Shown here piece after piece: positions 7,511 to 32,000 of a DNA stretch of 32,000 nucleotides. Each line of letters opens with the position of its first letter. Position 1 is the first letter of the stretch. The position numbers and the translations under genes are program-made. The stretch comes from Trichlorobacter lovleyi SZ (GTDB lineage Bacteria; Desulfobacterota; Desulfuromonadia; Geobacterales; Pseudopelobacteraceae). The stretch lies in contig NC_010814.1 of NCBI RefSeq assembly GCF_000020385.1, forward strand, positions 1,170,001-1,202,000, in the 5' to 3' direction. The notes beneath the pieces are model-generated. The model made no database searches, was not told the origin of the DNA, and worked only from the letters and a program-made list of their open reading frames with translations.

Positions 7511-7517
7511 GTTGTTT

Positions 7518-7542: not shown

Positions 7543-7595
7543 TTGTGTAATATGCTGTTTTCTTTTGCAGTAAATTTGTTTTTAAGATTATATGT

Positions 7596-7617
7596 ATCCC
7601 CAAAAACATCCCCAAAA
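7596..7617 (+). repeat. Two direct copies of ATCCCCAAAA, 12 bp apart (candidate integrase arm-type sites)
   Basis: Exact decamers lie at 7596-7605 and 7608-7617. The same decamer recurs in both orientations next to the integrase gene at 16645-16700. Confidence 0.4.
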
Positions 7618-7667
7618 CTGTTGTTGCTTATCCGTTTTTAGATCAGACAGGCGGCTCTGTTGTAGGG

Positions 7668-7880
7668 CTATTCTGCTGCTCCGCTATCCTTTTGACAACA
7701 GCCTGCCTCTTCGTCGGATATCTGCTTGATGGTTAGCGTCAATACTCGCAGGTCGCTGATTCGGTCAAGCTGTTCATCCCGTGGCAGATCAATAAACTCT
7801 ACGGCAAAGTCGTAGGTCTCGCGTTCCAGTATGTTGATCAGGGAGCGAAGTTCTACTTCGGGGCTATTTGGGTAGATCAT
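7668..7880 (-). CDS. Hypothetical small acidic protein (70 aa)
   Basis: The ATG at 7880 overlaps the upstream gene's TGA (ATGA). A strong SD (AAGGTGGTG) sits 5-11 nt upstream. I recognise no family. Confidence 0.55.
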   Translation of the reverse strand: MIYPNSPEVELRSLINILERETYDFAVEFIDLPRDEQLDRISDLRVLTLTIKQISDEEAGCCQKDSGAAE

Positions 7881-8242
7881 TGTTCACCACCTTTTCTAAG
7901 ATTGCTTATTTGTCCAATATAGAGCTTTTCCCATTTTTCTGATGGTCTCAATGCATGGGGCGCACAATGTCGTACAGGTGTTAAGTCGTTAAGGTGACGA
8001 TGAATGTCATCGGTAATAGAAACCAAGTCATTAATAATAAGTTTAAATATTTGATTGGCAGAATCTTCTGAATAAGTCCTTAACTCATCTAAAGCATAAT
8101 AATACGCACCAAGAGCCCCTGTTGTTTCTTCAAGTTCATAATGAAGCTCTTGCAGTTTACTGTAATGGTGGTCTGCTACTGAATTGTCTTCGCTGGCAGG
8201 TAATGGAGAAGCCTGTTGTGGTTTGGTTGCTTTTTGTGCCAT
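7877..8242 (-). CDS. Hypothetical protein (121 aa)
   Basis: The ATG at 8242 has AAAGGA 9 nt upstream. The gene is AT-rich, helical-looking and translationally coupled to the 70-aa ORF. I recognise no family. Confidence 0.6.
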   Translation of the reverse strand: MAQKATKPQQASPLPASEDNSVADHHYSKLQELHYELEETTGALGAYYYALDELRTYSEDSANQIFKLIINDLVSITDDIHRHLNDLTPVRHCAPHALRPSEKWEKLYIGQISNLRKGGEQ

Positions 8243-8445
8243 GGCGTTTGTCCTTTCAAATGTATGATAACTATACCTTCATGCTACCCACAAAAATTGC
8301 ATTGTATAAGCTGTTTTCTTTTGATAGGCTATGTATAACATTTTGATGTTATTGTATTTTATCCGCATTAATTGCGGACAAAATGTTTGATTGTTGCGTG
8401 TATATTTGCTTGAATCTGTCTGAAAAATGCACGCATTACCAATGG

Positions 8446-8481
8446 CAAGAGCCGCCCAGGGGATCCCCGGAGCGGCTCTTG
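8446..8481 (-). terminator. Long GC-rich hairpin 30 nt downstream of the 749-aa gene (possible terminator, but no clear U-tract)
   Basis: CAAGAGCCGC...GCGGCTCTTG forms a 10-bp perfect outer stem enclosing the palindrome GGGGATCCCC. Confidence 0.4.
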
Positions 8482-8510
8482 TGTTTCAACGTGCTGAAAA
8501 TTAAGCCGGT

Positions 8511-10760: not shown

Positions 10761-10789
10761 CAGATGCTTGCTGACTTCTGCTCGGTGTT

Positions 10790-11383
10790 CTACTGCTGCC
10801 TTAATGTCCGGGTTTTTGAAGCGACAAGAGATTCTTTTTTTCCTTCTTTTAAATGGTGTGGGGTCCGGGCGGGTTCCGGGGTGGTGTCCGGCGTGGGGTC
10901 CGGTGTAGACATTTGTTGACTTTCCCTAACAATCCCTAACATTTCTGGCCGTTCTTTGGTGGGTTCCGGGGTGGTGTCCGGGATGGTGTCCCGTGTGGGG
11001 TCCGGGTTTTGGTGGGGTCCGCAACTGTCGGAAGCTTGATAAGTGTCATATTTGATTATTGAAATCAGCAATCCTCTGGTGGTGTCCGCCACTTTTATAG
11101 CCCCTGTCTGTCTCATCCAGCCGTATGCTGCCCGTACCTGATCAACTGATAATTTGCCGGTCAGTCGATTACCTGATTTGTATGCCCCTACCTCTTGCAT
11201 TTCCTTGATGCTGGTCAGCAGTTGCCCACGTTTAAGCCCCTGCCCATCCTGCCAGCGGGCTTTTAATAACATCCAGATCCACAACTTCAGGTAGTGGGGC
11301 GGTTTGCTGAATAGGTCAGAGTCCAGCAGCTGGCGGAATAGTCTGATGTACCCGCCTGATATGTGTGTGTCTGGTAGTTGCAT
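10790..11383 (-). CDS. Putative winged-helix DNA-binding / replication-initiator-like protein with a Pro/Thr/Asp-rich repeat tail
   Basis: The ATG at 11383 has an AGGGG SD. The N-terminus GYIRLFRQLLDSDLFSKPPHYLKLWIWMLLKARWQDG resembles N-termini of phage/plasmid replisome-organiser-type HTH proteins (from memory). The C-terminus carries PDPTRDTIPDTTPEP and PDPTPDTTPEP repeats. The coding call is firm; the function is tentative. Confidence 0.65.
   Translation of the reverse strand: MQLPDTHISGGYIRLFRQLLDSDLFSKPPHYLKLWIWMLLKARWQDGQGLKRGQLLTSIKEMQEVGAYKSGNRLTGKLSVDQVRAAYGWMRQTGAIKVADTTRGLLISIIKYDTYQASDSCGPHQNPDPTRDTIPDTTPEPTKERPEMLGIVRESQQMSTPDPTPDTTPEPARTPHHLKEGKKESLVASKTRTLRQQ
10858..11022. 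repeat. Iteron-like repeat cluster inside the Rep-like gene
   Basis: The exact 21-mer GGGTTCCGGGGTGGTGTCCGG occurs at 10871-10891 and 10961-10981, 90 bp apart. GTGGGGTCCG(G/C) occurs at 10858, 10893, 10995 and 11012. Tandem TCCCTAAC lies at 10923 and 10933. An AT-rich tract follows at about 11033-11075. Confidence 0.45.
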
Positions 11384-11502
11384 GAAGCCCCTGCTATGGT
11401 GTCCCCTGGTTGAATCTGCGGGCAGCAGAGCCGGGGCAAGCTCTGTTTTCGGGTGGCCTCCCTAGCCCGCAAAACTGTAAATCCCTAAGTTAACCTAAGT
11501 TT

Positions 11503-11898
11503 TTAGGGTGCTTGCTCGTCTGCGGTCTCGGGATTATCCTCTGCGTCCATGCGCCAGACGGCATCCCAGCCATACGCCTCAATCGCCAGCTCCATCAGGT
11601 CAGAGCCACGCCATAACCAGACTTCGCCATGCCGGATAAGATCGGGACGCTGTAGTTTGCGCCCGGTCCTCTGGAAAATTTCAGCTTTAGTAAATGCCGT
11701 GGAGATCGCGTTGCGGACACTTTGCGGAACATTGCCGCCAATTGTAGGCCGGTGGTTAGGATCAGCGGCAGCGTCACGCCAGCCAAAATTCTCGAAGTCT
11801 GGCAGCGGTGGCCCATCATCACCGCGTGGGCCGGGTGGTTCTTGGGCCTGCAGCTCTTGAATCTGCCTGATCAACTCGTCTATGCGCGCGCGACTCAT
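11503..11898 (-). CDS. Hypothetical protein (131 aa)
   Basis: The ATG at 11898 overlaps the TGA of the AlpA-like gene (ATGA). I recognise no family. Confidence 0.65.
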   Translation of the reverse strand: MSRARIDELIRQIQELQAQEPPGPRGDDGPPLPDFENFGWRDAAADPNHRPTIGGNVPQSVRNAISTAFTKAEIFQRTGRKLQRPDLIRHGEVWLWRGSDLMELAIEAYGWDAVWRMDAEDNPETADEQAP

Positions 11899-12092
11899 TG
11901 GGTGATGCCTCTCTCGATCAGGTTGATGATCTCGTCAGTGCGGAAGCGGGTGGTCTTCCCGGTCAGCTTCACCGGGTTGAGGTGTCCAGCCTTCGCAAGG
12001 TTCCAGACCGATGTCCGGCATATGCCCAGGGCTGCGGCTGCGTTTTTGTCGGTGGTCAGTGTGCCGGGGGTTAAGTGTTGGCGGGTGTCCAT
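11895..12092 (-). CDS. AlpA/excisionase-family helix-turn-helix protein
   Basis: The 65-aa ORF has an AAGGAGG SD 9 nt upstream. LTTDKNAAAALGICRTSVWNLAKAGHLNPVKLTGKTTRFRTDEIINLI matches the AlpA/MerR-type HTH_17 pattern typical of P4-like islands. Confidence 0.8.
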   Translation of the reverse strand: MDTRQHLTPGTLTTDKNAAAALGICRTSVWNLAKAGHLNPVKLTGKTTRFRTDEIINLIERGITQ

Positions 12093-12124
12093 TTGGGGTG
12101 CCTCCTTTGTTTATGGTTGATGTT

Positions 12125-12169
12125 CTATTTGTAGGGCGGTATAAGTCGATCTATCACTATTTGTAGGGC
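12125..12169. promoter_or_regulatory. Operator-like direct repeat in a divergent intergenic region
   Basis: CTATTTGTAGGGC occurs exactly at 12125-12137 and 12157-12169 (32-bp register), between the divergent AlpA-like and HTH genes. Confidence 0.45.
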
Positions 12170-12187
12170 ATCGTCAAATATTTTTTA

Positions 12188-12958
12188 TTGGGGGGTATTG
12201 TGGCTAAGGGACGTGGTGGCGGAAACACTCCGAAACTTGTTACATATTTGCTGAAAGATGCTGTTGAAAAAAGCAGCATACGTGCGGTCGCAAGAGAAAG
12301 CGGCTTAACACAATCAGCTGTTTATAGATATCTGCAAGGTATTGGCGAGCCATCGCTTAGCACGCTAGAAAGGTTAGCAACTTATTTTCAGGTAAGTGTT
12401 GCGTATTTAAGGGGGGATGTTGACAGCACTGAAAATAAGCTAAAGCAGTTTATCAAAAATCACACTTCTGAAATTAGGTCTCGGTCAGATGATGCTGAGC
12501 TGATGCAGCTTTTTGAAAACTTCATCAAAAACAATCCTGATGCAGGGTTTGCAGTAGCAGATGTATTTAATACAAAAAAAATGGAATCAATTGTTTTTGC
12601 CTTAAATATAAATCAGGAACGTCTTCAGGCTGAAATAGAACGTCTTCAGGCTGAACGTGATGCTCTTATTAATTCTGAAAAGCGTCAGGGTCTTGACGAT
12701 GAAGCCGATGTTTTTATAGAAATTTTGAGTTGCTTGTTGGAAATCTACGAAATAGTCCCCGAACGATTAAAAGATACTTTTAAGATCGTTATTGAAGGAT
12801 ATCGTGATGATGCTTCCAATATTGATTTTACAAAAATTCCGTGTGAAAAATATAAGCAGTTAGATGCGCTGACTTCAAAGGCTTGGGATATTTTCTATGG
12901 TGATGCTGAATTTGATACAGATGGAGTTTTATTAGGGAGAAATAAGGAGAAGGAATAG
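12188..12958 (+). CDS. XRE-type HTH protein with an uncharacterised C-terminal domain of about 170 aa
   Basis: The HTH is IRAVARESGLTQSAVYRYLQGIGEPSLSTLERLATYFQVSVAYLRG. The track start is a TTG at 12188; the in-frame GTG at 12200, preceded by GGGGG, is the more likely start. The gene is markedly AT-rich. Confidence 0.75.
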   Translation: MGGIVAKGRGGGNTPKLVTYLLKDAVEKSSIRAVARESGLTQSAVYRYLQGIGEPSLSTLERLATYFQVSVAYLRGDVDSTENKLKQFIKNHTSEIRSRSDDAELMQLFENFIKNNPDAGFAVADVFNTKKMESIVFALNINQERLQAEIERLQAERDALINSEKRQGLDDEADVFIEILSCLLEIYEIVPERLKDTFKIVIEGYRDDASNIDFTKIPCEKYKQLDALTSKAWDIFYGDAEFDTDGVLLGRNKEKE

Positions 12959-13012
12959 CCGGTTTCTCTTCTCCCGGAAAAAGCAGAAAAAACAAGAAGT
13001 TTTAAGCAGAAA

Positions 13013-13037
13013 GGGCAGCCGTTACCGGTTGCCCTTT
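13013..13037 (+). terminator. Rho-independent terminator after the HTH gene
   Basis: GGGCAGCCG-TTAC-CGGTTGCCC followed by TTTGGTG. Confidence 0.55.
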
Positions 13038-13156
13038 GGTGTGTGTGGGTAGGGTGAAAGAAGGCGAAAAAAGGCGAAGGATACAGGCTGTACTGCTAAC
13101 CGAGAAAAAGGCGACATTTTGCGACGGTTCTGCTGTTGCCGGGTGAATGGGGTGGG

Positions 13157-13486
13157 TCAGGCTGCTGCGACTCTCAAGCTGCCCAGTTGCCGTGAACGTG
13201 CCTTGGGCTTGATAACGATCTGGACATCCCGGCCCAGCAGGTTCAGGAAGTGAAACAGGCGTTCCATGGAAAAGCCTTTCAGGCGTCCACGAATTAAGGC
13301 TGATACCTTGGGCTGATCTATTCCCAGCAATTCTGCTGCCTGTGCCTGGGTCAGGTGCCGCCTTTTGATGATATCATGTATCTGGATAGAGAGCAGGGCC
13401 TTTGCCTGCATTTCTTCGGCATCAGGTAGTTCAAGGTCTGCAAACACGTTACCGCTGCTGTGGTATAATTCAATCTCTTCTTTCAT
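13157..13486 (-). CDS. XRE-family HTH antitoxin (HigA-like)
   Basis: NVFADLELPDAEEMQAKALLSIQIHDIIKRRHLTQAQAAELLGIDQPKVSALIRGRLKGFSMERLFHFLNLLGRDVQIVIKP is the usual partner of Gp49-type toxins. It starts 7 nt after the toxin stop. Confidence 0.85.
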   Translation of the reverse strand: MKEEIELYHSSGNVFADLELPDAEEMQAKALLSIQIHDIIKRRHLTQAQAAELLGIDQPKVSALIRGRLKGFSMERLFHFLNLLGRDVQIVIKPKARSRQLGSLRVAAA

Positions 13487-13492
13487 ATCTTG

Positions 13493-13858
13493 TTACCTCC
13501 CTTTGCCCCGGTGCAACTCTTCAGCCATCTTCAACCGCGTCTTGATCTTCTCTATTTCTGCTTGAGGCGTGGCAATCCCTGTTTTTGATTTCTTCTGAAA
13601 TACATGCAACACATAGACTACATCCGCAAAGCGTACCGTATAGACAGCCCGGTATGTATCGCCGTCATGATCTTCAACAATCTCTAGTACACCAGCACCT
13701 GAAAAGCCTTTCAGCGGCTTGGCGTCGGGATGCTTACCGCCTGCCTGGGCCATGAAGAGAGCAACACCAAAGAAACGCCTGACGTCTTCCGGCATTTCTT
13801 TTAGGTCTTTCAGGCTGCTGGCAATCCACTCAAGAGGTTTTGTAGGCTTGTTATTCAT
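13493..13858 (-). CDS. Type II toxin, phage Gp49-like/HigB-like (RelE/ParE superfamily)
   Basis: KPLEWIASSLKDLKEMPEDVRRFFGVAL...YRAVYTVRFADVVYVLHVFQKKSKTGIATPQAEIEKIKTRL is the Gp49/DUF891 pattern. I use the ATG at 13858 rather than the track start at 13909. Confidence 0.85.
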   Translation of the reverse strand: MNNKPTKPLEWIASSLKDLKEMPEDVRRFFGVALFMAQAGGKHPDAKPLKGFSGAGVLEIVEDHDGDTYRAVYTVRFADVVYVLHVFQKKSKTGIATPQAEIEKIKTRLKMAEELHRGKGR

Positions 13859-13909
13859 TGCGTCCCCATTATGCCATAATTGGCATAAATATAAACAACA
13901 AAAATTCAA

Positions 13910-14464
13910 TCAGGCTTTTGCTGCCTTGGCTATCCGGTACACGCTGGCAATACCTATTTCCAGTTCATCAGCTACCGCCTGCTTTGTCTTGCCCTGGGCC
14001 AGCAGTTCAAGTGCCTTGTCAGACAGTGCCCGTGCTGTTGCCTTGCGGCCTTGGTAGCGCCCTGCATCTTTGGCCAGCCTGATCCCTTCCCGCTGCCGCT
14101 CCAGCATCATTTCCCTTTCAAACTGTGCGATTGATGCCAGCATGGAAAGCATCAGCTTGCCGGTGGGGGTGGAGGTGTCCAGGTTGATGTTCAAGACCTT
14201 GAAGGAAACCTTTCTGGCTTCAAGTGACTCTACGATCTCTAACAGGTGTTTGGTGCTGCGGGCTATCCGGTCCAGCTTGCAGACTATTACCGTGTCACCT
14301 TCCCGGAGGTGGTCAAGCATTGCCGCCAGCTGTGGGCGGTCTTGCTTCACGCCTGATGCTTTTTCTTTGAAGATCTTATCAACACCAGCACCGTTTAGTT
14401 GCTCAAGCTGTGCGGTCAGTTCCTGGCCTTCTGTGCTTACCCGTGCATATCCGATGATTGCCAT
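13910..14464 (-). CDS. Serine recombinase (resolvase/invertase family)
   Basis: MAIIGYARVSTEGQ...DTVIVCKLDRIARSTKHL...LASIAQFEREMMLERQREG, with a C-terminal HTH (KTKQAVADELEIGIASVYRI). I use the ATG at 14464. Confidence 0.9.
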   Translation of the reverse strand: MAIIGYARVSTEGQELTAQLEQLNGAGVDKIFKEKASGVKQDRPQLAAMLDHLREGDTVIVCKLDRIARSTKHLLEIVESLEARKVSFKVLNINLDTSTPTGKLMLSMLASIAQFEREMMLERQREGIRLAKDAGRYQGRKATARALSDKALELLAQGKTKQAVADELEIGIASVYRIAKAAKA

Positions 14465-14518
14465 GATAGTTCCTCTCTGTGCGGTTGCTATCAACAAGTT
14501 AAATACTATGTGATAAAC

Positions 14519-14647
14519 CTATCAATAGGGTTAAGGATTGTCAAGGTTTTTCAAAAATCAGCGGTTTCAAAGTTTGTAAGTTGCTGATTTTACATAAACG
14601 GAACCTATCACGTTTTTGCTATCAATAGAGCAAGGGCTATTGATAGC
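14519..14647. promoter_or_regulatory. res-like recombinase binding sites upstream of the serine recombinase gene
   Basis: CTATCAATAG occurs at 14519-14528 and 14619-14628, exactly 100 bp apart. A perfect 11-bp inverted repeat GCTATCAATAG / CTATTGATAGC lies at 14618-14628 and 14637-14647, with an 8-bp spacer. Confidence 0.45.
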
Positions 14648-14663
14648 GTTTGGGCATGGATAT

Positions 14664-14693
14664 AAAAAGGCGACTACGTAAACTGTAGTCGCC
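14664..14693 (-). terminator. Rho-independent terminator after the second TA operon
   Basis: GGCGACTAC-loop-GTAGTCGCC, followed on the minus strand by TTTTTATA. It lies 34 nt downstream of the antitoxin stop. Confidence 0.6.
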
Positions 14694-14726
14694 TCTGGTG
14701 GGAACTGTTGTTGATTCAGTGTAGAG

Positions 14727-15071
14727 TTATAGGAGCCGTCTGTAATCGCAGTGCAGGGCCTCAGCAAGCCGCTTGGCGCTGACAATACCAATAATACGCT
14801 TACCGTTCTCCATTTCGCTGATGTGCCGCTGGGGAATGCCGGTTGCTTCTGCAAGCTGTGTCTGGGTCATGCCTTCCCGGTGCCGGAATCCTGATAGGGT
14901 TGTGCCCGCCTCATTGCCTGCAAATTCGGGAAAGGCTTCACGCCATGGAATGCTGTCGTCAGCTTCCTGCAGGCCGATCTTGGCAGCGAATGCCCGCAGC
15001 TCTTGAACCTTGTTGACTGATCCAATAAAGCGAACTGAATCAGTATGGTGCTTTTTCATGCGTTCCAGCAT
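14727..15071 (-). CDS. HTH (XRE) antitoxin of the second TA pair
   Basis: The C-terminal HTH is GMTQTQLAEATGIPQRHISEMENGKRIIGIVSAKRLAEAL. It overlaps the 3' end of the upstream toxin gene. An alternative ATG lies at 15059. Confidence 0.8.
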   Translation of the reverse strand: MLERMKKHHTDSVRFIGSVNKVQELRAFAAKIGLQEADDSIPWREAFPEFAGNEAGTTLSGFRHREGMTQTQLAEATGIPQRHISEMENGKRIIGIVSAKRLAEALHCDYRRLL

Positions 15072-15318
15072 ACGTAACCTCCACCAGCTTAATCTTCCCG
15101 TCCTTTACTTCCCAGACTGCTACATAGGTTGGATTGCCCTTTTTAAGGTGGCAGTGGTGCCTGGCACTGGAAAGCTTCCCGTAGTTCGGCCAGTCTCCAC
15201 GGACGGGGCCACCGGCTTCAATATCTCCGATCAACGCATACAGGATCTGACGTAGCGTTTTAGGGAGTTTGCTTTTTTGCTTTTCTGCTGCTCGTGACAG
15301 CTTAACTGTCCAAGTCAT
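15040..15318 (-). CDS. Type II toxin, RelE/ParE family
   Basis: The 92-aa ORF (...WPNYGKLSSARHHCHLKKGNPTYVAVWEVKDGKIKLVEVTYAGTHEKAPY) shows the characteristic RelE/ParE-superfamily C-terminus. The toxin-first operon matches a HigBA-type layout. Confidence 0.8.
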   Translation of the reverse strand: MTWTVKLSRAAEKQKSKLPKTLRQILYALIGDIEAGGPVRGDWPNYGKLSSARHHCHLKKGNPTYVAVWEVKDGKIKLVEVTYAGTHEKAPY

Positions 15319-15367
15319 AAAATATACCTTTCAGAAGTATAAATCAAGCCTCTGTATTTATCCCCGG

Positions 15368-16630
15368 TTACACCACCTGTCTGATCGAAATAACCTTCGC
15401 CCCGGCCTTTAATCCGTCCAGGTAGTCAGCCCATTGCTGCATCATCTGACGCCGATCTTTAAGGAAAGAGGTTCGATTGTAGGCCCTGCCGTTTGCATCC
15501 CTTACCGCGTGGGCTAGCTGGTGTTCAATTATGTCAGGCCGGAACCCTAATACTTCATCCAGAATGGTTCGGGCGGTTGCCCTGAATCCGTGACCGGTCA
15601 TTTCGCTTCCGGTATACCCAAGACGGCGCAAGGCTGCAGTAATGGCGTTTTCACTCATAGGTCGTAATGGGGTGCGGTGGCAGGGGAAAACATATTTGCT
15701 GTGTCCAGTCAGGGGGTGCAGCTCTCGAAGTATCTGGACGGCTTGAGAGGAGAGGGGGACAAGGTGGAACTGCCCCTTGCGGTCTTGCTTGGTCTGGTTC
15801 TTCAGCTTCATTCTTTCAACGGGTATGTTCCATTCGGCAGAATCAAGGTTAAGCTCTGCCCACTCCATGCCCCGTAGTTCCCCAGGGCGGCAGAACAGCA
15901 TAGGGGAAAGCTGTAAGGCGCACTTGACTACAAAACTTCCCTGAAAGCTGTCTATGGCTCTTAACAGGGGGGCAACTTCTTTCGGGTCTGTCAGTGCCCC
16001 GAAGTGCTTTGCTCTTGCCGGGGGTAATGCTCCCCTTAAGTCTGCTGTACAATCACGGTCTGCCCGGTGTCCGTGGGCTATGGCGTAGCGTAATACCTGG
16101 CTGATGATCGTCTTTACCCGGTGAGCGGTCTCAAGTATCCCTCGTGATTCAATCCGTTTCAGAACCTTCAGCACGTCCGGGGCCTTAATCTCTTCAATCG
16201 GCATTGCCCCGATATAGGGGAACAGTTCCCTTTCCAGCCGGCTAAAGAGCTTGGTGGCGTGGCCGGGAGTCCATTGGTTCTGAAAGGCTCCAAACCATTC
16301 CCGTGCTATTACCTCAAAACTGTTTGCTGTCCTGTCTTCACCGGCTTGCTTTTGTGCCTTCTTTAGATTTCCCGGATCAGTACCGTTTGCGACGAGCTTC
16401 CGGGCTTCCTCTTTCCGCCTTCTTGCATCTGCCAAAGAGATCTCAGGATAAGATCCAAATGCAATCCGGCGCTCTTTACCTTCAAAGCGGTATTTCATCC
16501 GCCAGAGTTTGCCGCCTGTTGATGTAACGAGTAGGTAGAGGCCGCCACCGTCAAATAGATTGTAGTCTTTGTCTTTGGGTTTGGCCTTGGAAACTTGAAT
16601 GTCGGAGAGGGGTACAATCCTTTTAGGCAT
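15368..16630 (-). CDS. int: Tyrosine integrase, P4-type (N-terminal DUF4102-like arm-binding domain plus catalytic domain)
   Basis: MPKRIVPLSDIQVSKAKPKDKDYNLFDGGGLYLLVTSTGGKLWRMKYRFEGKERRIAFGSYPEISLADAR... and the C-terminal HGFRATARTIL...HQLAH...AYNR. I use the ATG at 16630, which has a GGAGGA SD. The track's upstream extension to 16741 crosses the promoter repeats. Confidence 0.9.
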   Translation of the reverse strand: MPKRIVPLSDIQVSKAKPKDKDYNLFDGGGLYLLVTSTGGKLWRMKYRFEGKERRIAFGSYPEISLADARRRKEEARKLVANGTDPGNLKKAQKQAGEDRTANSFEVIAREWFGAFQNQWTPGHATKLFSRLERELFPYIGAMPIEEIKAPDVLKVLKRIESRGILETAHRVKTIISQVLRYAIAHGHRADRDCTADLRGALPPARAKHFGALTDPKEVAPLLRAIDSFQGSFVVKCALQLSPMLFCRPGELRGMEWAELNLDSAEWNIPVERMKLKNQTKQDRKGQFHLVPLSSQAVQILRELHPLTGHSKYVFPCHRTPLRPMSENAITAALRRLGYTGSEMTGHGFRATARTILDEVLGFRPDIIEHQLAHAVRDANGRAYNRTSFLKDRRQMMQQWADYLDGLKAGAKVISIRQVV

Positions 16631-16644
16631 GGCGCTTTCCTCCG

Positions 16645-16700
16645 TTTTGGGGATACCCAAAATGCTATGGGGATATTTTGCTGAAAATATATCCCCAAAA
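16645..16700. repeat. Cluster of ATCCCCAAAA-type sites in both orientations upstream of int
   Basis: TTTTGGGGAT lies at 16645-16654 (inverted), ATACCCAAAA at 16653-16662 (1 mismatch) and ATCCCCAAAA at 16691-16700 (exact). There is also the palindrome-like GGGGATATTTTGCTGAAAATATATCCCC. Confidence 0.4.
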
Positions 16701-16744
16701 AACGTGGATTCAAGCATATCAATATAGACTTGTATGGACAATAT

Positions 16745-16775
16745 AAAAGAAAAAGCCCTTGAATTTTCAAGGGCT
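16745..16775 (-). terminator. Rho-independent terminator downstream of tRNA-Met
   Basis: AGCCCTTG-loop-CAAGGGCT, followed on the minus strand by TTTTTCTTTT. Confidence 0.6.
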
Positions 16776-16809
16776 TTTGGTCTTGTCTGGACTATCCCAG
16801 ACTGTCTAA

Positions 16810-16886
16810 TGGTGGCTGCTCAGGGACTCGAACCCCGGACCTCACACGTATGAAGCGTATGCTCTAGCCAGCTGAGCTAAGCAGCC
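16810..16886 (-). tRNA. tRNA with anticodon CAT (elongator Met, or Ile2 if lysidine-modified)
   Basis: The reverse complement folds by hand as a 77-nt cloverleaf. The 7-bp acceptor is GGCTGCT/AGCAGCC and the D-arm is GCTC...GAGC. The anticodon stem is TACGC/GTGTG with loop TTCATAC. The T-arm is CGGGG-TTCGAGT-CCCTG, with discriminator A and an encoded CCA. Confidence 0.9.
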
Positions 16887-16931: not shown

Positions 16932-17008
<77 letters not shown>

Positions 17009-23664: not shown

Positions 23665-24947
23665 TATTTCAGCGAGCTGATATAGCCCCGGATACCATCC
23701 AGGATGCCGTCGGCAGCCAGATCATGAAAGGATGGGTCCTTCAGATGGCTCTCTTCGGTACTGTTGCTGATAAAGGCAACCTCTGTCAGGATGCTGGGCA
23801 TGCTGGCACCGACCAGCACATAGAAAGGGCCCTGCTTGACACCCAGATTTTTGGTGTCAGGGTATTTTGACCTGCTGGTTTTGTAGAGCGCCTTCTGCAC
23901 CTCTTCCGCAAGATGGGCCGAGTCATTCAGTTTGTAATTGGCCATCAGGTCAAACAGGATCGCCTGCAGCGTGCTGACCTTTTCCAGCGAGGTGCCGTTT
24001 TCCTTGGCAGCCAGTTGGGCCACCTTCTCGGTTTTGGCCAGATTCAGGTAGTAGGTCTCGATACCGGCAGCGTTTCGATTGGGGGCGGCATTGGCGTGGA
24101 TTGAGACAAACAGGTCGGCGTTGACCTTGTTGGCAATGGCGGTCCGTTCTTCCAGCGGAATAAAGATGTCGGTCGAGCGGGTCATGACCACATCCAGCCC
24201 CAGCTCTTCCCGCAATTTTTCTCTCAGTTTCAAGCCAATGGACAAGACCACATCCTTTTCCTGCAGGCCGCTTTGACCTACTGCACCGGGGTCGTGGCCG
24301 CCATGACCCGGATCCACCACAATCCGGCGGATCTTGGAGATGGAAGGGTGCTTTTTGGTTGATCTGGGAGTCCGTTCTGCCTTTGGCTCCTCCGTAGCGG
24401 TCCTGGCGGGGGCTGTCGCAGCTACGCCGTCCAGGCTGTGGCTGGCCAGGGAACTCTCCAGCCGGCTGATCTCGGTTCTCCGGTCACCTCTGACATCGAT
24501 AATCAGGCGAGCCGGGTCTGAAAGGGGAAATATCTTGTAATCCCTGATGTTGTCGGTGTCCAGTACCACCCGTACTACTCCCGGCTTGTACAGTGCAGTC
24601 CGGACGCCTTTCAAAAGGCCGTCGCCGATCGTGATATCACGCATGCTGTTGCCCAGCCGGGCGTTGTGAAGGTCAATGAAGATCCGGCCCGGTTTGCCAC
24701 TACGACCGGCAGACTTGTCCAGTTCGTGGCTTTCCCAGGTCACATCGCGGTCAAGGGTAATGGCAATCCGGGTATAGTCAGGGTTTGACCAGTATTTCAG
24801 GTCCAGTACCTGGGCCGGTGGTGCTATTCTGTTTTCTGCAGTGGATTGTTTTCTGGCTGTTCTGGCGGCGTGGACAGGTGAGGTAGCGGTTGTCAGTGCA
24901 AACAACGCCAGTAACAGGTATATAATCGGTCTTGGTCGGATCGTCAT
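23664..24947 (-). CDS. amiC: N-acetylmuramoyl-L-alanine amidase with signal peptide and AMIN domain
   Basis: The signal peptide is [27 protein letters not shown]. An AMIN-like region (YTRIAITLD...RVVLD) and an Amidase_3 core ([13 protein letters not shown]...SIHANA...) are present. There is an ATGA overlap with the mutS stop. Confidence 0.9.
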
Positions 24948-27562
24948 GCCATTTTCTTCAATTCATCAAGCAGATTCAATGCTTCCAACGGTGTCATAAC
25001 AGAAATATTCAATTTTTTCAACCGTTCACGCAGCAGATCTCCCTGTTGTTCAAACAGGGTAAACTGCGCGGTTTCCTTTCTGGGCGGGGCGATGCTGCTC
25101 TTTGAGAGGCGCGGCGAGCCTTGTTCAAATTCCCCTTCTTCCAGGGTTTTGAGCACTTCTTTGGCCCGCTCGATCACGTTACGGGGCATGCCGGCCAGCC
25201 GGGCCACCTGAATGCCGTAGGAGTGAGAGGCGGCACCGGGAATGATGGTGCGCAGGAAGATGACCTGGTCGTTCCATTCCTTGACCGCTACGGTCAGGTT
25301 GGTGATCCCTTCACGGGTGGCGGCCAGATCGGCCAGTTCATGGTAATGGGTGGCAAAAAGGGTGCGGGCCTTGCAGTGGTTGGTGTCGTGCAGGTACTCG
25401 GCCACGGCCCAGGCGATCGAGAGGCCGTCGAAGGTGGAGGTGCCGCGGCCGATCTCGTCCAGTACCACCAGACTTTTGGTGGTGGCACTGCGCAGGATAT
25501 GGGCGGTCTCCATCATCTCCACCATAAAGGTGGACTGTCCGCGGGCAAGATTGTCACCGGCGCCGACCCGGGTGAAGATCTGGTCGGCAATGCCGATGGT
25601 CGCTCTGCTGGCCGGTACAAAGGAACCGACCTGGGCCATCAGGGTAATCAGGGCCACCTGGCGCATGTAGGTGGATTTACCGGCCATATTGGGGCCGGTG
25701 ATCATCAGTAGCTGGTGCTGTTCCTGATCCAGGCGGGTGTCGTTGGGGACAAAACGTTCCCCCAGATTCATCGCCTCCACCACCGGATGGCGCCCCTCAA
25801 TGATTTCGAGGGTGTCACCGTCATCCACAACCGGTTTGCAGTAATCCCGTTCCTGGGCCACCAGGGCCAGGGAGGCCAGTACATCAAGGCTTGCCAGGGC
25901 GGATGCGGTGCGGCTGACCCTGCCCCCCTGGGCGGCGGTCCGTTCCCGTACCTCCTGGAACAGGGTGTATTCCAGTTCGCAGATCCGGTCCTCGGCGCCC
26001 AGTACCTTTTCCTCGTAGCTCTTCAGCTCTTCGGTGATGTAACGCTCACCGGTGGCGATGGTCTGGCGGCGGATGTAGTTGTCCGGCACGCTGGAGAGGT
26101 TGGATTTGGTTACCTCGATGTAGTAGCCGAATACCTTGTTGTAACGGATCTTCAGTGAGCTGATCCCGGTCCGGTCGCGTTCCTGTGCCTCCATCCGGGC
26201 GATGTACCCCTTGCCTTCGCGGCTTATGGCGCGCAGTTCGTCCAGTTCGGCATGGTAACCATCGGCGATGATGCCGCCTTCCCGCAGCGAAAAGGGCGGG
26301 GCCGGGGCAATGGCCTGATTGATCAGGCTGCGTATATCCTGCAGCGGGTCCAGTTCTTCGGTCAGATCCCGCAACAGCGGGGCAGTGGCCTCCGTTAGTG
26401 CCAGTCTGATCTGCGGTACCTGCTCCAGCGAGTCATGCAGTGAGCGCAGGTCGCGGCCACCGGCACCGGCCATGCTGACCCGGCCGTTCAGGCGTTCCAG
26501 GTCATGCACCCCTTTCAACTGCTCCCGCAGCTGATCCTGCAGCGCCGGGTTCTCTTTCAGCTCTTCCACTGCCTCAAGACGCCGCCTGATCGGCGCCACC
26601 TGAACCAGCGGGTAGGAGAGCCACTGTTTGAGGGTGCGGGCCCCCATGGCCGTGGCCGTGCGATCCAGACAGCCCAGCAGCGAGCCGCTCTTCTTGTTGT
26701 CGGTCATGGTGGCGGTCAGTTCAAGATTACGGCGGGTAGCCGGATCAAGAGCCAGATGGTCGTTCTGGCGTACAATGGTCAGATCCCGCAGGTGGGGCAG
26801 TGTGGCGTGACGGTTTTCCTGCAGGTAATGCAAGACCATACCGGTTGCCAGGAGTGCCTCAGACAGCTCAGTGACGGCCAGTCCCAACATTTCCGGCGAG
26901 GCCACCCCGAACTGGCTGCAAATCAGTTTGGAGCAGTAGTCTTTGTCCAGTACCCAGTCAGCCACCGCGGCCCGGGGGCGGTCACCTGCCACCAGGGCCA
27001 GTTCCGGCGGCAGGTCACGGCGCAGCTGGTCCGGCAGCAGCAGTTCCCGGGGGGCTATGGATGCCAGCAGGGTCGCGGCTCCGGCAAGGTTGTCACTGTT
27101 GGCGGTGAGGAATTCTCCGGTGGAGAGATCAAGCCAGGCGCAGCCCCAGCGCTGCCCGCTGCTGCAGAGGGCCAGCAGAAAAGAGTTTTCATCCGGGGTC
27201 AGGCTCTCGCTTTCGGTCACCAGGGCCGGCGTAACCACCTTGACCACATCCCGTTTGACAAGTCCCTTGGTTTGCTTGGGGTCTTCGATCTGTTCGCAGA
27301 CCGCCACCCGGTAGCCCGCCTCCACCAGCCGGGCGATATACGGCTGGGCCGAGTGAAACGGCACGCCGCAGAACGGAATCTCATCGGCACTGTTCTTGTT
27401 GCGGGAGGTAAGGGTGATATCCAGAATGCGGGAAGCGACCAGGGCATCATCCAGAAACATCTCGTAAAAATCTCCCATGCGGAAGAACAGGATGCTTTCG
27501 GGGTGCTGGGCCTTGATTTCAAGGTATTGCCGCATCATGGGGGTCTGAAGAGCTGAACTCAT
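24944..27562 (-). CDS. mutS: DNA mismatch repair protein MutS
   Basis: [30 protein letters not shown]..., Walker [15 protein letters not shown] use the ATG at 27562 ([10 protein letters not shown]...) rather than the 24-codon upstream extension. Confidence 0.95.
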
Positions 27563-27657
27563 AGCACGGTTTGTAGCACACAGGCGCTTGCCATTGCAAG
27601 GAGGCGAGGCACAGTGTATAGGTGAGTCAATCAAATCCAGCGGGGGGGGAGCAATTT

Positions 27658-27888
27658 ATGAAGATTCTGATTCAGTACTGTGCATCCTGAGGACAACAAC
27701 AGCTGGCGGCAGGTCTTGCCGCTGAACTTGAGAAGAACCTTGAAGAAGTAACCGTAGAAATTGAGCGTGGTCCCAAGCAGAGTGAGCTGGCGGTACTGGT
27801 GAATGGTGAGCAGATCTTCTCCCGGCTGGAGCAGATGCGCTACCCTACTGTACCGGAACTGATTGCGGCCTGCCGTAGCAGGCAGTAG
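27658..27888 (+). CDS. Selenoprotein, SelW/Rdx-like thioredoxin-fold protein with a CxxU motif (in-frame TGA at 27688-27690 read as Sec)
   Basis: Hand translation gives MKILIQYCAS-U-GQQQLAAGLAAELEKNLEEVTVEIERGPKQSELAVLVNGEQIFSRLEQMRYPTVPELIAACRSRQ (76 aa). A GGGGGGA SD precedes the ATG. The frame stays open for 66 codons after the TGA. A SECIS-like hairpin starts 10-15 nt after the TGA. Confidence 0.7.
27700..27724 (+). promoter_or_regulatory. Bacterial SECIS element (SelB-binding hairpin)
   Basis: GGCGGCA-GGUCU-UGCCGCU forms a 7-bp stem including one G:U pair. The apical sequence GCAGGUCUUGC resembles the E. coli fdhF SECIS apex GCAGGUCUGC (from memory). The loop GU lies about 22 nt after the UGA. 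Confidence 0.6.
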
Positions 27889-27895
27889 CTGGTAT

Positions 27896-28819
27896 TTACA
27901 GTCTGATCGCCTGATCCAGGCAGAACTCCACACACAGACCGCAGCCGGTGCAGCGTTCCTGCACAAACTCAGGGTGTTCTTCCTGTACGTTGCTGACCAG
28001 GGCGCCGGTGGGACAGATGGCGACACAGCCCTGACAGGCGCTGCAGGCTGTGTTGAACCTGATGCTGTGATCAAACTGTTTTGCTGCTGTCGCCTGTTGC
28101 TCTTCAGGCAGTGAACTGCGTGTTTGGTTCAGTAGTTCTCTTCTTTGCGGTATTCGTTTGTCTCCATAGCTGCTGCTGCGTTCCACCGGTTTTGCGCTGG
28201 TCTGCATGACGTCTGCTGCGGCCTGAAACAGCGAGTTGCGGAATGACGTGAAAAAGCTGCGTCGGTCAACGGTTTCAGGCTGGTACTGCAGTTCTACCTG
28301 AGACGTTGCCGTGACAAGGTTGCAGCCACCTGCGGTCAGTCCGCTGGCCGTCATCCGCTGCAGCCGTTCCTTCAGCAACGGCAGTATGGCGCTGTTGGGG
28401 CAGTCATCACAGTGAATCAGATTCAGGGTCAGAGCGCCGCTTAACCGCTGGCTCAGTGTCAGCAGGTGTTCCTCTGCAAGCCCCCCCAGACAGGATAGCC
28501 AGGCATGTGCCTGTTCTTTGCTACGGCAACAGCCCAGAACCGGTTTCGGGACTTTTCTGAGTTGCAGGATGATGGCCTGAAAGTCTGCCTGTTGTTCAAG
28601 TGCGCCGGAGGGGCAGACGGTGGTGCAGAGCAGGCAGCCACTACACTGTTCCTGATTGATGACCAGTCCGTCTTCCAGCGACAGGGCTGCAGCAGGGCAG
28701 ATTGCTTGACAATGGTTGCAGACGCTCTCACTGAAGCGTGTTCGCAGACAGCGGGAAGGGTCGATCTGCAGATCATCCCGGCTGCCGACAGGCACCTGTT
28801 TTTTTGCACTGCTAGACAT
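27896..28819 (-). CDS. Poly-ferredoxin-like 4Fe-4S cluster protein (307 aa)
   Basis: CxxCxxCxxxCP-type motifs occur at both ends (CNHCQAICP, CSGCLLCTTVCP, CSACQGCVAICP, CTGCGLCVEFC), with extra Cys pairs in the middle. It overlaps the TorD-like gene by 8 nt. Confidence 0.8.
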   Translation of the reverse strand: MSSSAKKQVPVGSRDDLQIDPSRCLRTRFSESVCNHCQAICPAAALSLEDGLVINQEQCSGCLLCTTVCPSGALEQQADFQAIILQLRKVPKPVLGCCRSKEQAHAWLSCLGGLAEEHLLTLSQRLSGALTLNLIHCDDCPNSAILPLLKERLQRMTASGLTAGGCNLVTATSQVELQYQPETVDRRSFFTSFRNSLFQAAADVMQTSAKPVERSSSYGDKRIPQRRELLNQTRSSLPEEQQATAAKQFDHSIRFNTACSACQGCVAICPTGALVSNVQEEHPEFVQERCTGCGLCVEFCLDQAIRL

Positions 28820-29450
28820 GGGCGGCTGCGTTCAGGTTACGGGCATCAGCGGTGACAAACGCGGCGGTACAGCGGGCAATCGCCTGATAAAACGGGGCCT
28901 CAGCGTCTTCAATGATCGTATCGGTAAACGGCCCTAGCCAGGGTAAGAGGAAGGTACCCAGAAATTGACGCTGCAGGTCTCTCAGCCGGTCTGCCTCCGG
29001 AGTATCTCCGGCAGCGGCGGCTTCCCGCTGTTTAAAGGCCATGTACGACATGAACTCCAGCTCAACGGCAAAATGATCCGGCAGTTCATGGAAGTCATCG
29101 GCCAGATGCAGGCCGTTGGCGTGGTAGAAGGCAGCCACCTTTGCCGTGGAATCCCCCATCACGGACTTCTGCTCATCCAGCCAGACTGAGCCATAGGGTG
29201 GGGCTACCAGTTTAAACGGTCCCATAAAAAGGCGGGAGTGTTCCACCACCAGTTCATCAAGACTTATTTTGTGTAAAAGTTCAGCAGCTTCTGCCGCTGA
29301 AGCAGCTGCATCCGGCACCATGTCCGACAGCAGGCCGGCCAGTGAGATACAGCAGTTTTCTTCAAGCAGGGCCTGGCTGGGTGAGTAGTAACAGGCAGCC
29401 AGAAGCCGGTAGCTGTCTTCGCGGCAGGTGGTGGCGGTTTGTTCCGGCAT
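28812..29450 (-). CDS. TorD/DmsD-family redox-enzyme maturation chaperone
   Basis: SYRLLAACYYSPSQ...EHSRLFMGPFKLVAPPYGSVWLDE...LPDHFAVELEFMSYM matches the TorD-like family pattern. Confidence 0.85.
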   Translation of the reverse strand: MPEQTATTCREDSYRLLAACYYSPSQALLEENCCISLAGLLSDMVPDAAASAAEAAELLHKISLDELVVEHSRLFMGPFKLVAPPYGSVWLDEQKSVMGDSTAKVAAFYHANGLHLADDFHELPDHFAVELEFMSYMAFKQREAAAAGDTPEADRLRDLQRQFLGTFLLPWLGPFTDTIIEDAEAPFYQAIARCTAAFVTADARNLNAAAHV

Positions 29451-29524
29451 GGTTGGCTCCTTAGCAAAGCGGGATGGGACTTTCGTCCCATCCCGTTAGT
29501 ACAGTTAACAGCTTAACAGTATGG

Positions 29525-30295
29525 TCAGATCTTGGCAGTTGCCTTGAAGGAACGGATATAGGCCACATTGGGCCTGGTCTTCTTATCTTCCTTCAGGCGT
29601 ACGGCCTTGTACTTCTTGAGCAGTTTTGCCGGTTCTGATGAGGCATCATTCAGGTCGCCGAAGACACGTGCCCTGGAAGGGCAGACCGTCACGCAGGTGG
29701 GCTGCTCGCCTTTGGCCACGCGGTGGGCACAGAAAATACACTTTTCAACCACACCCTGCTTGCGGATGCTGGCGTAATCAGGGTGGCTGTACTTGTTGTG
29801 ATTGGGGATGACGCCGCCGGCAGCCTTGGCGGTCTCCGCACCGGAGGCGGTGCAGCCCTTGATCAGTTCGGTAGTATCACGGGAGGCCTTGTGCGGGGCT
29901 TCAGTGCCACTGTTGGCGCTGATCACCGAATACTCGGCCTTTTCCTTTGCCACATCCATGGCGCTGTAGGGACAGGCCTTCTGGCAGCGGCGACAGCCGA
30001 TACAACGCTCATCATTATGCATGGTGATGCCGTCCGGCGTCTTGAACATCGCCTTGGGTTTCACCGGGCAGGCCTTGACGCAGGGGGCGTCACTGCAGTG
30101 GTTGCAGAGCACCGGAATCGCTGAAAAGTTTACCTTGGGGAATTTCCCCTCTTCTTTGTAGATGAAGTCGGCCCAGTTAAAGGTCTGGCCGTTTGTGCGG
30201 GCCTGAGTGTTGTTCTCGGTCTTGCAGCCCAGGGCGCAGGCGCCGCAGCCGACACATTTTTGCAGGTCTATGACCATTCCGTATTGTTTTGCCAT
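29525..30295 (-). CDS. 4Fe-4S ferredoxin-type electron-transfer subunit of a molybdopterin oxidoreductase (DmsB/PsrB/NrfC-like)
   Basis: MAKQYGMVIDLQKCVGCGACALGCKTENN...CNHCSDAPCVKACP...CIGCRRCQKACPY...CIFCAHRV...PTCVTVCP shows four cluster motifs. Confidence 0.9.
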   Translation of the reverse strand: MAKQYGMVIDLQKCVGCGACALGCKTENNTQARTNGQTFNWADFIYKEEGKFPKVNFSAIPVLCNHCSDAPCVKACPVKPKAMFKTPDGITMHNDERCIGCRRCQKACPYSAMDVAKEKAEYSVISANSGTEAPHKASRDTTELIKGCTASGAETAKAAGGVIPNHNKYSHPDYASIRKQGVVEKCIFCAHRVAKGEQPTCVTVCPSRARVFGDLNDASSEPAKLLKKYKAVRLKEDKKTRPNVAYIRSFKATAKI

Positions 30296-30314
30296 CTATC
30301 AGATCCCCCCTTTC

Positions 30315-32000
30315 CTAAGCTTTCTCGATCTTGACGCCGGTGAAACCGCCGTTACGTGCCGTTGCGCCGCTCAAACGGTCAAAGTCTGACGGCATCAGTT
30401 CGTTGTTGTTGCCACCCAGGGGTGTCTTGCCGTACTCCTTGGCAGCTACACGGCCGTAGGCCCAGTGACCCTGGCCATAGCACTTGGCCACCGTACCCTG
30501 CCGCACGCCCTCCCAGAGACGGGCCTTGCAGGTGATTGATCCGGTGGTGGAGGTCAGGCGGATGGTGTCGCCATCCTTGATCCCCAGCTTTTTGGCATCC
30601 AGCGGGTTGATCTTGGCCACGTCATCCCAGCTCTTGTCCCCCACATCCACCTTTTTGAATTCCTGGTACCAGACCGTATTGGCGGAGCGGCCTTCACGGT
30701 TGAGGCGTGATTTATGGTCAATAAAGGTGAAGGGATATTCTTTTTCACTGCCGTGACGCTTGGGCGACTCGTAGTGCGGCACAAAGACCAGTTCGCCCTG
30801 GGCCTCATAGCCACTGGCCTTGAGGATGTCATCAATGCTGGTCTTGTGTTTGGCAGCGAACAGGGTCAGGGTTTTTTTCAGGGTCTCGCTGTAGAACTCG
30901 AACTTGTGGGTAACAGTCTTGAACTTGCCCCAGTTCTTTTTGTAGGCATAGGTCTCGGTGTTGTAGATCCCTTTTTTCTTAAACTCGGCCCAGCTGCTGA
31001 GTTTATCGCCCTTCAGCTTCTCCTTGCCGTTCCAGGCCTTCTGACTGGAGATTTTTGCGGCGATCTCACAGAACTGCGCAGCATTGGTCGGCTTCTGCTT
31101 GGTCTCTGGATCTTCAAAGGAGGCATAGTAGTCATACTGGTTGGCAAAACCCCTTGCCTTGAGTTTTTCGGCCAAAAGCCACATCACCTCGGTCTCTTCG
31201 GCCTTGACGTTCCAGAGCGGTTTGGCGACCTGTTGCTGGATGGAAAGGTGGCCATGCAGGTTGGCCATGTTGGAGATAACCGAGAGCTTTTCAGTCGGCG
31301 CAAAGGTGGCCGGCAGCACGATGTCGGCAAACTGGGTCATCTCCGAGGCATTGGTGACCATATGCACAAAGAACGGTACCTTGGCCATGGCCTTGTCCCA
31401 ACGCTGGGCACCGGTGGCGGAGAAGTTGAAGTTGGACCAGGTGCTGATGAAGATCTGGCAGGCGGCCGGATCTTTCAGGATGCCGTCGGCCACTGCGTTG
31501 GTGACCACGTTGGCCTTGGCGCTTTCAGTTACTTTGCCATCCTTGTCTTTCTTGGAATCAAAGCCACCCATAATAGCTGGCATGTCCTTGGCGCCTCGAC
31601 CGTCCAACTTCTTGCCCTTGCTGCCTTTCTTGGCAAGCTCATCAATAAAGATATCCTTGATTTCAGGAAACTTCGTGCCTGGTGCGCTGGAAGACTGGAA
31701 TACCCCACCCTCGGTCTCAATTGATCCGAGGATACCGTTTAAGGCATAGACGGCCATTGATGCGTAGGTGCCCCGCGGGGTCATGGCCACACCAGGCCCC
31801 ATCCACACCGCACAGGCAGAACCGGCTTTGCCCATGGCTCGGGCAACCTTGATGATCTGTTCAGCCGGGATCAGGGTCTTCTTGGCAGCCCAGGCCGGGG
31901 TCTTGTCCTTCAGTTCAATGTTCCAGTACTTGACGATCCCGTAGGTCTGCTTCTCGGCAAAGGCTGCTTCATCAACCGTGGCACCGGCCTTGAACAGGTT
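30315..32000 (-). CDS. Molybdopterin (bis-MGD) oxidoreductase catalytic subunit, C-terminal ~560 aa; 5' end lies outside the window
   Basis: The frame of ORF 30315..31835 stays open to nt 32000 (hand translation upstream: ...AEQIIKVARAMGKAGS...). The C-terminal molydopterin_dinuc-binding-like region reads DGDTIRLTSTTGSITCKARLWEGVRQGTV. Substrate specificity cannot be called. Confidence 0.9.
   Translation of the reverse strand, partial: NLFKAGATVDEAAFAEKQTYGIVKYWNIELKDKTPAWAAKKTLIPAEQIIKVARAMGKAGSACAVWMGPGVAMTPRGTYASMAVYALNGILGSIETEGGVFQSSSAPGTKFPEIKDIFIDELAKKGSKGKKLDGRGAKDMPAIMGGFDSKKDKDGKVTESAKANVVTNAVADGILKDPAACQIFISTWSNFNFSATGAQRWDKAMAKVPFFVHMVTNASEMTQFADIVLPATFAPTEKLSVISNMANLHGHLSIQQQVAKPLWNVKAEETEVMWLLAEKLKARGFANQYDYYASFEDPETKQKPTNAAQFCEIAAKISSQKAWNGKEKLKGDKLSSWAEFKKKGIYNTETYAYKKNWGKFKTVTHKFEFYSETLKKTLTLFAAKHKTSIDDILKASGYEAQGELVFVPHYESPKRHGSEKEYPFTFIDHKSRLNREGRSANTVWYQEFKKVDVGDKSWDDVAKINPLDAKKLGIKDGDTIRLTSTTGSITCKARLWEGVRQGTVAKCYGQGHWAYGRVAAKEYGKTPLGGNNNELMPSDFDRLSGATARNGGFTGVKIEKA

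Follow-up and report, generated by a model that had tools for sequence, protein, structure and literature searches.

A small plus-strand reading frame in the genome of Trichlorobacter lovleyi SZ raises the question of whether the TGA that interrupts it after ten codons ends a short peptide or is decoded as selenocysteine (Sec). The frame lies at positions 27658..27888 of the 32,000-nt window of NC_010814.1 that was analyzed as a whole, and all coordinates given below for this genome are window positions. An initial annotation, made from the sequence alone, had proposed that the frame is a gene for a SelW/Rdx-like selenoprotein with a selenocysteine insertion sequence (SECIS) element resembling that of Escherichia coli fdhF, and our results support this interpretation. 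We conclude that 27658-27888 is very probably a single 76-residue SelW-like gene with the active site Cys8-Ala-Ser-Sec11, in which the UGA is recoded to Sec. Two observations stand behind this conclusion: a G+C-rich hairpin of 6-8 bp with a GGUCU apex is conserved 15 nt after the codon-11 UGA, and purifying selection acts on one reading frame across the UGA.

One reading frame across a TGA in an Rdx-family gene

Reading the sequence directly, we found an ATG at 27658-27660, separated by 6 nt from the end of a Shine-Dalgarno (SD) region (27642..27651, plus strand) that consists of a run of eight G residues followed by AG and holds the core GGAG at 27648-27651. The frame then reads MKILIQYCAS, the TGA at 27688-27690 (codon 11), 65 sense codons, and a TAG at 27886-27888; the well-placed ATG with its G-rich SD, the TGA after ten codons, and the frame that stays open to the TAG are all as the initial annotation had described them. 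The predicted redox motif C-A-S-U occupies 27679..27690 on the plus strand, with Cys8 encoded by TGT at 27679-27681 and the proposed Sec11 by the TGA. Since the coding sequence (CDS) is identical at 231 of 231 nt in three independent assemblies, the TGA is not a sequencing error. The G8 homopolymer within the SD region (27642-27649) is a possible slipped-strand site, and no length difference that would indicate phase variation of this run was seen among the three independent assemblies. A scan of the 95-nt intergenic region between mutS and the Rdx gene for sigma-70 promoters gave no match.

For the comparative analysis, the DNA was read at six distinct orthologs and then at 80 more loci found by scanning a collection with one genome per species, the related loci being retrieved in part with the peptide pattern AA[GS]LAAE[LI]E. 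TGA stands at the CxxU position in every one of the 89 loci examined, which belong to Geobacteraceae, Planctomycetota, Acidobacteriota, Gemmatimonadota, Myxococcota, Actinomycetota, and others (at least six phyla), and in these loci an SD, a start codon, and about ten conserved codons lie ahead of it and a conserved Rdx body lies behind it. The closest named genome is that of Trichlorobacter thiogenes ATCC BAA-34, at 92% protein identity. Orthologs that end at the TGA would have told against a selenoprotein; none does, all keep the TGA together with the conservation downstream of it, and their frames are free of additional stops and of frameshifts. The SD and the ATG are kept in 15 of 15 Geobacteraceae orthologs, each with a GGAG/GGAGG-type motif at equal distance from the ATG. 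Within Geobacteraceae, the ratio of nonsynonymous to synonymous substitution rates (dN/dS) was about 0.15 over codons 2-10, ahead of the TGA, and about 0.12 over codons 12-73, after it, so that purifying selection of similar strength acts on the two flanks as one frame.

Of the 18 window genes with Pfam support, 8 have TGA as their ordinary stop, so the genetic code here is not one in which TGA is a sense codon. Examination of all TGA triplets of the window on both strands revealed that only the TGA at 27688 combines a G+C-rich xGU-loop hairpin with long open flanking frames, and no second SECIS-like TGA with long open frames on both sides was found in the window. An in-frame TGA that would mark a second selenoprotein was also looked for in the neighboring molybdoenzyme gene, which runs past the window end, and none was found.

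To which family the product belongs was addressed with hidden Markov model (HMM) scans of the 76-residue protein, in which U was replaced by C. The score was 47.2 bits with Pfam PF10262 (Rdx; curated cut-off 22.6, E = 2.6e-12), and the alignment crosses the TGA, placing residues 2-71 on positions 1-71 of the 74 profile positions. The curated cut-off of TIGR02174 (CXXU_selWTH) was also exceeded (40.7 bits versus 34.2), while the score with the NF041051 equivalog (SelTWH_Campy) was 40.3 bits and thus below its cut-off of 88, so that the protein was placed in the broader subfamily only and not in NF041051. A sequence match was obtained to the solved MIEN1 structure 2ljk (E = 3.4e-5), with weak matches to SAV_2001 (3dex) and 2p0g; in both alignments shown, those of 2ljk and 3dex, a Cys aligns with the TGA position. 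Among the 120 best database relatives (P0023-P0142), Sec and Cys alternate at this one column, with Cys in 34 entries and W in 73, and in the DNA that was read the codon is TGT or TGC in L093 and L094 and TGA in L001 and L095, the latter being the two W entries checked. The alternation of CxxC and CxxU that the initial annotation had stated for the family is thus found among these relatives.

The fold was modeled with AlphaFold on a 75%-identical ortholog (P0001) with a 97-sequence alignment. In this model, which has a mean predicted local distance difference test score of 87.4, the elements follow in the order beta1 (2-7), motif, alpha1 (14-27), beta2, beta3, beta4, and alpha2, and the C8-A-S-U11 of the window protein, which comes after MKILIQY, falls between the beta1 and alpha1 positions. 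When the P0001 model was compared with the PDB by Foldseek, the top 22 matches were all SelW-related proteins with template modeling (TM) scores of 0.72-0.87, including 2obk, 2fa8, 2p0g, 2oka, 3dex, 2ojl, and mouse SelW (2npb), and classical thioredoxins ranked after them with TM-scores of about 0.55-0.6. The profile scores and the predicted fold agree with the SelW/Rdx membership that had been proposed, and, with the same high probability that we give jointly to Sec decoding, the product is predicted to be a bacterial SelW-like protein, an oxidoreductase of the Rdx (SelW/SelT/SelH) family with a thioredoxin fold.

The solved CxxC proteins from Agrobacterium (2fa8), Vibrio cholerae (2p0g), Pseudomonas (2obk and 2oka), Streptomyces (3dex), and Bordetella (2ojl) have the same fold as the P0001 model (TM 0.72-0.87, root mean square deviation 1.2-3.0 Å) with the redox motif at the same position, at an identity of only 19-30%. 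By alignment, 3dex carries a Cys where the window gene would have Sec, and 2fa8, 2p0g, 2obk, 2oka, and 2ojl likewise have a Cys there. The Rdx fold and the position of the CxxU/CxxC motif are also common to mammalian SelW (2npb), which is a selenoprotein, and to MIEN1/C17orf37 (2ljk). Nearest in kind are the bacterial SelW-like proteins of TIGR02174, whose family is well established among bacterial selenoproteins and is on record for Geobacter sulfurreducens (PMC1794560). Like them, the window protein has about 75 residues with the CxxU directly after beta1, its CDS contains an in-frame UGA with a hairpin after it, and it occurs in Geobacteraceae; we saw no essential difference from the family, and with the G. 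sulfurreducens genome lying outside the loci compared, the likeness is one at the family level. Geobacter species carry the Sec-decoding trait (PMC1794560), and 13 selenoprotein genes are known in G. sulfurreducens (PMC12013277). A literature search for Trichlorobacter together with selenocysteine found no paper.

A putative SECIS hairpin after the UGA

The putative SECIS hairpin (27704..27724, plus strand) is formed by GGCGGCA (27705-27711), the loop GGUCU (27712-27716), and UGCCGCU (27717-27723), and in this form, the 7-bp hairpin of the initial annotation, it begins 14 nt after the TGA. Its core stem, GCGGCA/UGCCGC (27706-27711 / 27717-27722), starts 15 nt after the TGA and may be extended by the pairs G27705-U27723 and U27704-G27724, and the peptide encoded by the hairpin is (L)AAGLAAE. 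The distance from the UGA to the apical loop is 21 nt; the bSECISearch model reportedly uses a window of 16-37 nt for this distance.

A hairpin of the form GCNGCN-(G/A)GUCU-NGCNGC is kept 15-18 nt after the TGA in all 89 loci. The spacing is constant at 15 nt, except in Actinomycetota, where it is 18 nt, exactly one extra spacer codon (loci L009-L088; L045, L065, L067, L076, L077, and L079). For the analysis of covariation, 77 distinct homologous segments of 69 nt were aligned. Four of the stem pairs are fixed by Ala codons, and the remaining two (columns 30-42 and 33-39) are at third-codon positions, which are synonymous sites; these two pairs were broken in none of the 77 sequences, and pair 30-42 uses six types (CG, GC, AU, UA, GU, and UG) and pair 33-39 uses four. 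Overall, 96.5% of the cells were paired, compared with 80.7% in column shuffles, and none of 500 shuffles reached the observed pairing or the observed covariation score. In slid controls, where the 3′ partner was moved by 1-3 columns, only 18-65% were paired, and RNAalifold independently predicted the same helix. The covariation is not an artifact of how the loci were selected, because the retrieval pattern fixed the amino acids AA[GS]LAAE[LI]E and not the wobble bases. The loop was GGUCU in 52 of the 77 sequences, AGUCU in 17, GGGCU in 5, and AGUUU in 3. The hairpin is thus present as first described and has the support of covariation, and the comparison suggests that the peptide AA[GS]LAAE in helix 1 is imposed by the SECIS hairpin in genomes of at least six phyla.

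What this hairpin would do can be judged by comparison with the SECIS of E. coli fdhF (which runs from TGA CAC GGC, through CCA TCG GTT, to GCA GGT CTG CAC C and beyond), a sequence that we verified; of 5,426 E. coli genomes, 5,419 carry it at 100% identity in the gene annotated as fdhF. Both hairpins are within the CDS just after the UGA, and they have in common the apex octamer GCA-GGU-CU (GCAGGUCU), which in both is in the same frame and encodes Ala-Gly-Leu. The likeness of the two apices, which the initial annotation had pointed out, holds for the verified sequence: the fdhF apex GCAGGUCUGC and the window apex GCAGGUCUUGC are one U apart. The two elements differ in their loops, which are GGUCU in the window (or a GUC triloop closed by G-U) and GGUC in fdhF; in the position of the GU, which is one codon further from the UGA in the window (positions 26-27) than in fdhF (23-24); and in the stem, which is perfect in the window but has a bulged U17 in fdhF. 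The window hairpin also has no long lower helix. In E. coli, the loop G-U of fdhF (G23/U24) is contacted by SelB. In our view, the window hairpin is a distinct element that resembles the one of fdhF and probably functions in the same way. The location of the signal sets the window gene apart from eukaryotic SelW, in which the SECIS is in the 3′ untranslated region and acts with SBP2 and eEFSec, whereas the window hairpin is inside the CDS directly after the UGA.

By analogy with fdhF, we hypothesize that the hairpin acts as a SECIS: SelB carrying Sec-tRNA(Sec) would bind it, Sec would be delivered when the UGA is in the A site, and translation would then continue to the TAG at 27886. In all likelihood, the window gene is decoded by this standard SelB/SECIS mechanism. 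The fold and what is known of the family suggest that Sec11 immediately follows strand 1, at the N-terminal end of helix 1. There it probably attacks an oxidized thiol substrate, after which a selenenylsulfide would form between Sec11 and Cys8 and be re-reduced by a cellular thiol system.

Several points weigh against decoding as Sec or against the hairpin as its signal. The genes selA, selB, selC, and selD are absent from the window, whose sole tRNAs are two tRNA-Met. Folded as a single sequence, the 56-nt segment is no more stable than its shuffles (z = 0.22); since the folding energy cannot be told from that of shuffles, it was not used as evidence, and the hairpin rests on the comparative data. 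The match to a SECIS model that the initial annotation had named as a check did not materialize, as the SECIS families of Rfam 15 gave no match at E <= 10 on 27400-28100 and a scan of the whole window at the gathering score found no SECIS family; the Rfam searches of the region and of the whole window returned only two chance matches. Because no covariance model matched, the element was not assigned to any Rfam SECIS family. The retrieval of loci by a peptide pattern biases the set, so that the universality of the exact hairpin is overstated, and variant peptides, ASSLKAE and AAGLADE among them, occur in other family members from a wider protein search. Finally, the two Cys-form loci whose DNA was read (L093 and L094) keep a weakened hairpin, which in L093 has no loop U and in L094 has G-U at both variable pairs; these weakened hairpins, in two sequences only, fit a recent Sec-to-Cys conversion. 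As to the Rfam result, bacterial SECIS elements are diverse and hard to model (PMC12013277), and the Rfam SECIS models are no general definition of a bacterial SECIS element. This hairpin falls under no Rfam family, and a compact covariance model for it is possible. A weaker possibility is that the near-universal GCNGCN-GGUCU-NGCNGC hairpin constitutes a distinct, easily modeled SECIS class for automatic gene finding.

Other readings of the TGA and the public record

The public record of the locus is itself at odds with a 76-residue selenoprotein. The CDS, though identical in all 231 nt, is annotated as a 61-aa fragment in L096 and is uncalled in L097 and L098, in line with the expectation that standard gene callers would miss the gene, and the mechanical open reading frame (ORF) list omits this plus-strand frame. 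Among the 22 closest database entries, 21 are without the N-terminus (mostly 61-63 aa, with three of 44-53 aa), and the single full-length one, P0001, has W at the Sec position, where the DNA reads TGA. Many metagenome pipelines appear to translate such genes with a code in which TGA is Trp, giving false CxxW proteins. The systematic mis-annotation of such genes has been published (PMC13326102).

The first reading to be weighed against recoding to Sec is that of a pseudogene, an Rdx gene whose second active-site Cys codon has mutated to TGA, leaving only a 10-residue peptide while the rest decays. One base change is enough to turn TGT or TGC into TGA, and, as seen above, TGA is an ordinary stop in this window. 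The comparative data already contradict this reading: all 89 loci, drawn from several phyla, carry the TGA, the 62 codons downstream of it have a dN/dS of 0.12, the hairpin covaries at synonymous sites, and no ortholog frame has acquired further stops or frameshifts. We regard a pseudogene as highly improbable.

The shortened database entries suggest a second reading, in which the locus has two products, a short peptide ending at the TGA and a separately initiated 61-residue protein from codon 16. GenBank and metagenome pipelines annotate the orthologs in this way, several orthologs do have an ATG at codon 16, and the 21 truncated entries all begin after the TGA. In the window, however, codon 16 is CTG without an SD in front of it, and the 61-aa fragment annotation therefore has no canonical start there; across the orthologs, this codon varies between Leu, Met, Val, and Arg. 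The fragment would also be without strand beta1 and the whole family-defining CxxU/CxxC motif, although the Pfam alignment begins at residue 2 and the ten upstream codons are conserved together with the SD and the ATG, at a dN/dS of 0.15. Two products are, to our minds, just as improbable as a pseudogene.

Still less probable than either is that the UGA is read as Trp, Cys, or another standard residue, through an alternative code or near-cognate suppression and without SelB or Sec. The W stored at the Sec position in 73 of the 120 best relatives would favor such a readthrough, but the DNA is TGA under both W entries checked, and the locus does not yield the stored protein when translated with table 11. 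TGA ends 8 of the 18 window genes, as noted, a conserved, covarying hairpin that keeps a fixed distance to the UGA is the hallmark of SelB-dependent recoding, and, to our knowledge, CxxW is not a redox motif.

Least credible of all is that the real gene is the antisense ORF at 27631..28074 (minus strand, 147 aa, TTG start) and the plus-strand frame is fortuitous, since this ORF, which the initial annotation had already pointed out in the mechanical list and which is the longest uninterrupted one over the interval, has no Pfam match, has stops at scattered positions in the equivalent frame of most orthologs, and overlaps with its 5′ part, in another frame, the 3′ end of the well-supported ferredoxin gene 27896-28819, while the plus-strand frame has strong family matches and is under purifying selection; we list it as spurious.

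Neighboring genes and meaning of the locus

The gene that we read as a SelW-like selenoprotein gene lies between a divergent mutS and a convergent ferredoxin/molybdoenzyme operon, as the initial annotation had placed it. mutS (24944..27562, minus strand; five MutS domains match), whose start at 27562 was taken from the 872-aa call in the 99.99%-identical L096 (GCA_050171295.1), is separated from the Rdx gene by 95 nt. It is also found upstream and on the opposite strand in L001, L002, L003, L005, and L008 and is the sole constant neighbor within Geobacteraceae. The cargo of the interval between mutS and the Rdx gene differs, being TetR alone or a resistance-nodulation-division (RND) efflux pump with or without TetR (L001 9334-9978; L002 5018-9929; L008 5739-9937).

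On the other side, 7 nt separate the stop codons of the Rdx gene and of the gene for a 307-aa polyferredoxin (27896..28819, minus strand), the last gene of an ArrA/ArrB-like molybdoenzyme operon, which we give for context only. This operon (27896-32000, minus strand, including the polyferredoxin) scores best as ArrA-like, with 642 bits on a 561-aa partial protein against an equivalog cut-off of 1600, and also as ArrB-like, with 251.6 bits against a cut-off of 450 (NCBIfam equivalog), and it additionally encodes a TorD/DmsD-like chaperone. A small c7-type cytochrome and a sigma-54 activator precede it in L096, and ArsR and an SBF/Acr3-type transporter come after it in L001 (10267-16866) and L002 (10221-16835). 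From these sequence matches, the operon may encode a respiratory arsenate reductase that belongs to a divergent clade. The short distance between the stop codons and the ArsR and Acr3-type transporter genes after the operon in L001 and L002 gave rise to the idea that, in the Trichlorobacter lineage, the SelW-like protein is coupled to the Arr-like operon, for example as a selenol-based reductant or protectant in arsenate or selenium-oxyanion respiration. L003 and L005 do not have the operon at the equivalent position, which makes a functional link unlikely, and we give such coupling only a slight chance.

A search for conserved neighborhoods in the 80 loci found no neighbor shared across phyla. 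The neighbors are clade specific only and include a phosphofructokinase-like gene (by appearance and by a PF00365 match in L095), a putative transferase (by appearance), and a sigma/anti-sigma-like pair. In L049, a metagenome-assembled genome (MAG) of Thermoanaerobaculia, the Rdx frame (from about 3019) lacks a stop and extends by more than 200 residues into the next gene, which is transferase-like by the appearance of its sequence; a fusion, a frameshift, and an assembly error are all possible causes.

Elsewhere in the window, a segment of about 9.3 kb (7530-16809) is absent from the otherwise 99.99%-identical MAG contig L096. It abuts the 3′ end of a tRNA-Met (16810-16886), a second tRNA-Met being at 16932-17008, and is flanked by a 14-nt direct repeat (7516-7529 and 16810-16823). 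The segment contains genes for a tyrosine integrase (15368-16741, minus strand), a serine resolvase (13910-14497, minus strand), and a helix-turn-helix protein (12188-12958, plus strand), as well as two large ORFs without a Pfam match (8511-10760 and 10790-11383, minus strand), and it looks like an integrated mobile island.

For the biology of selenoproteins, the locus is very probably a real but ordinary small SelW-like selenoprotein gene with a known annotation problem and not new biology. The family, the Sec/Cys alternation, the occurrence in Geobacter, the recoding mechanism, and the annotation problem are all already published, and the understanding of selenoproteins is unchanged; particular to this locus is how public databases show the gene: as a 61-aa fragment, as no call, or, in other genomes, with a false Trp. 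The practical value is therefore in annotation. The entry for this gene should be a selenoprotein of 76 residues whose residue 11 is Sec, and the same correction is due for many records, with a false W in 73 of the 120 best family entries. The comparative set also yields a covariation-supported SECIS consensus for SelW-like genes from at least six phyla, which is usable for a covariance model.

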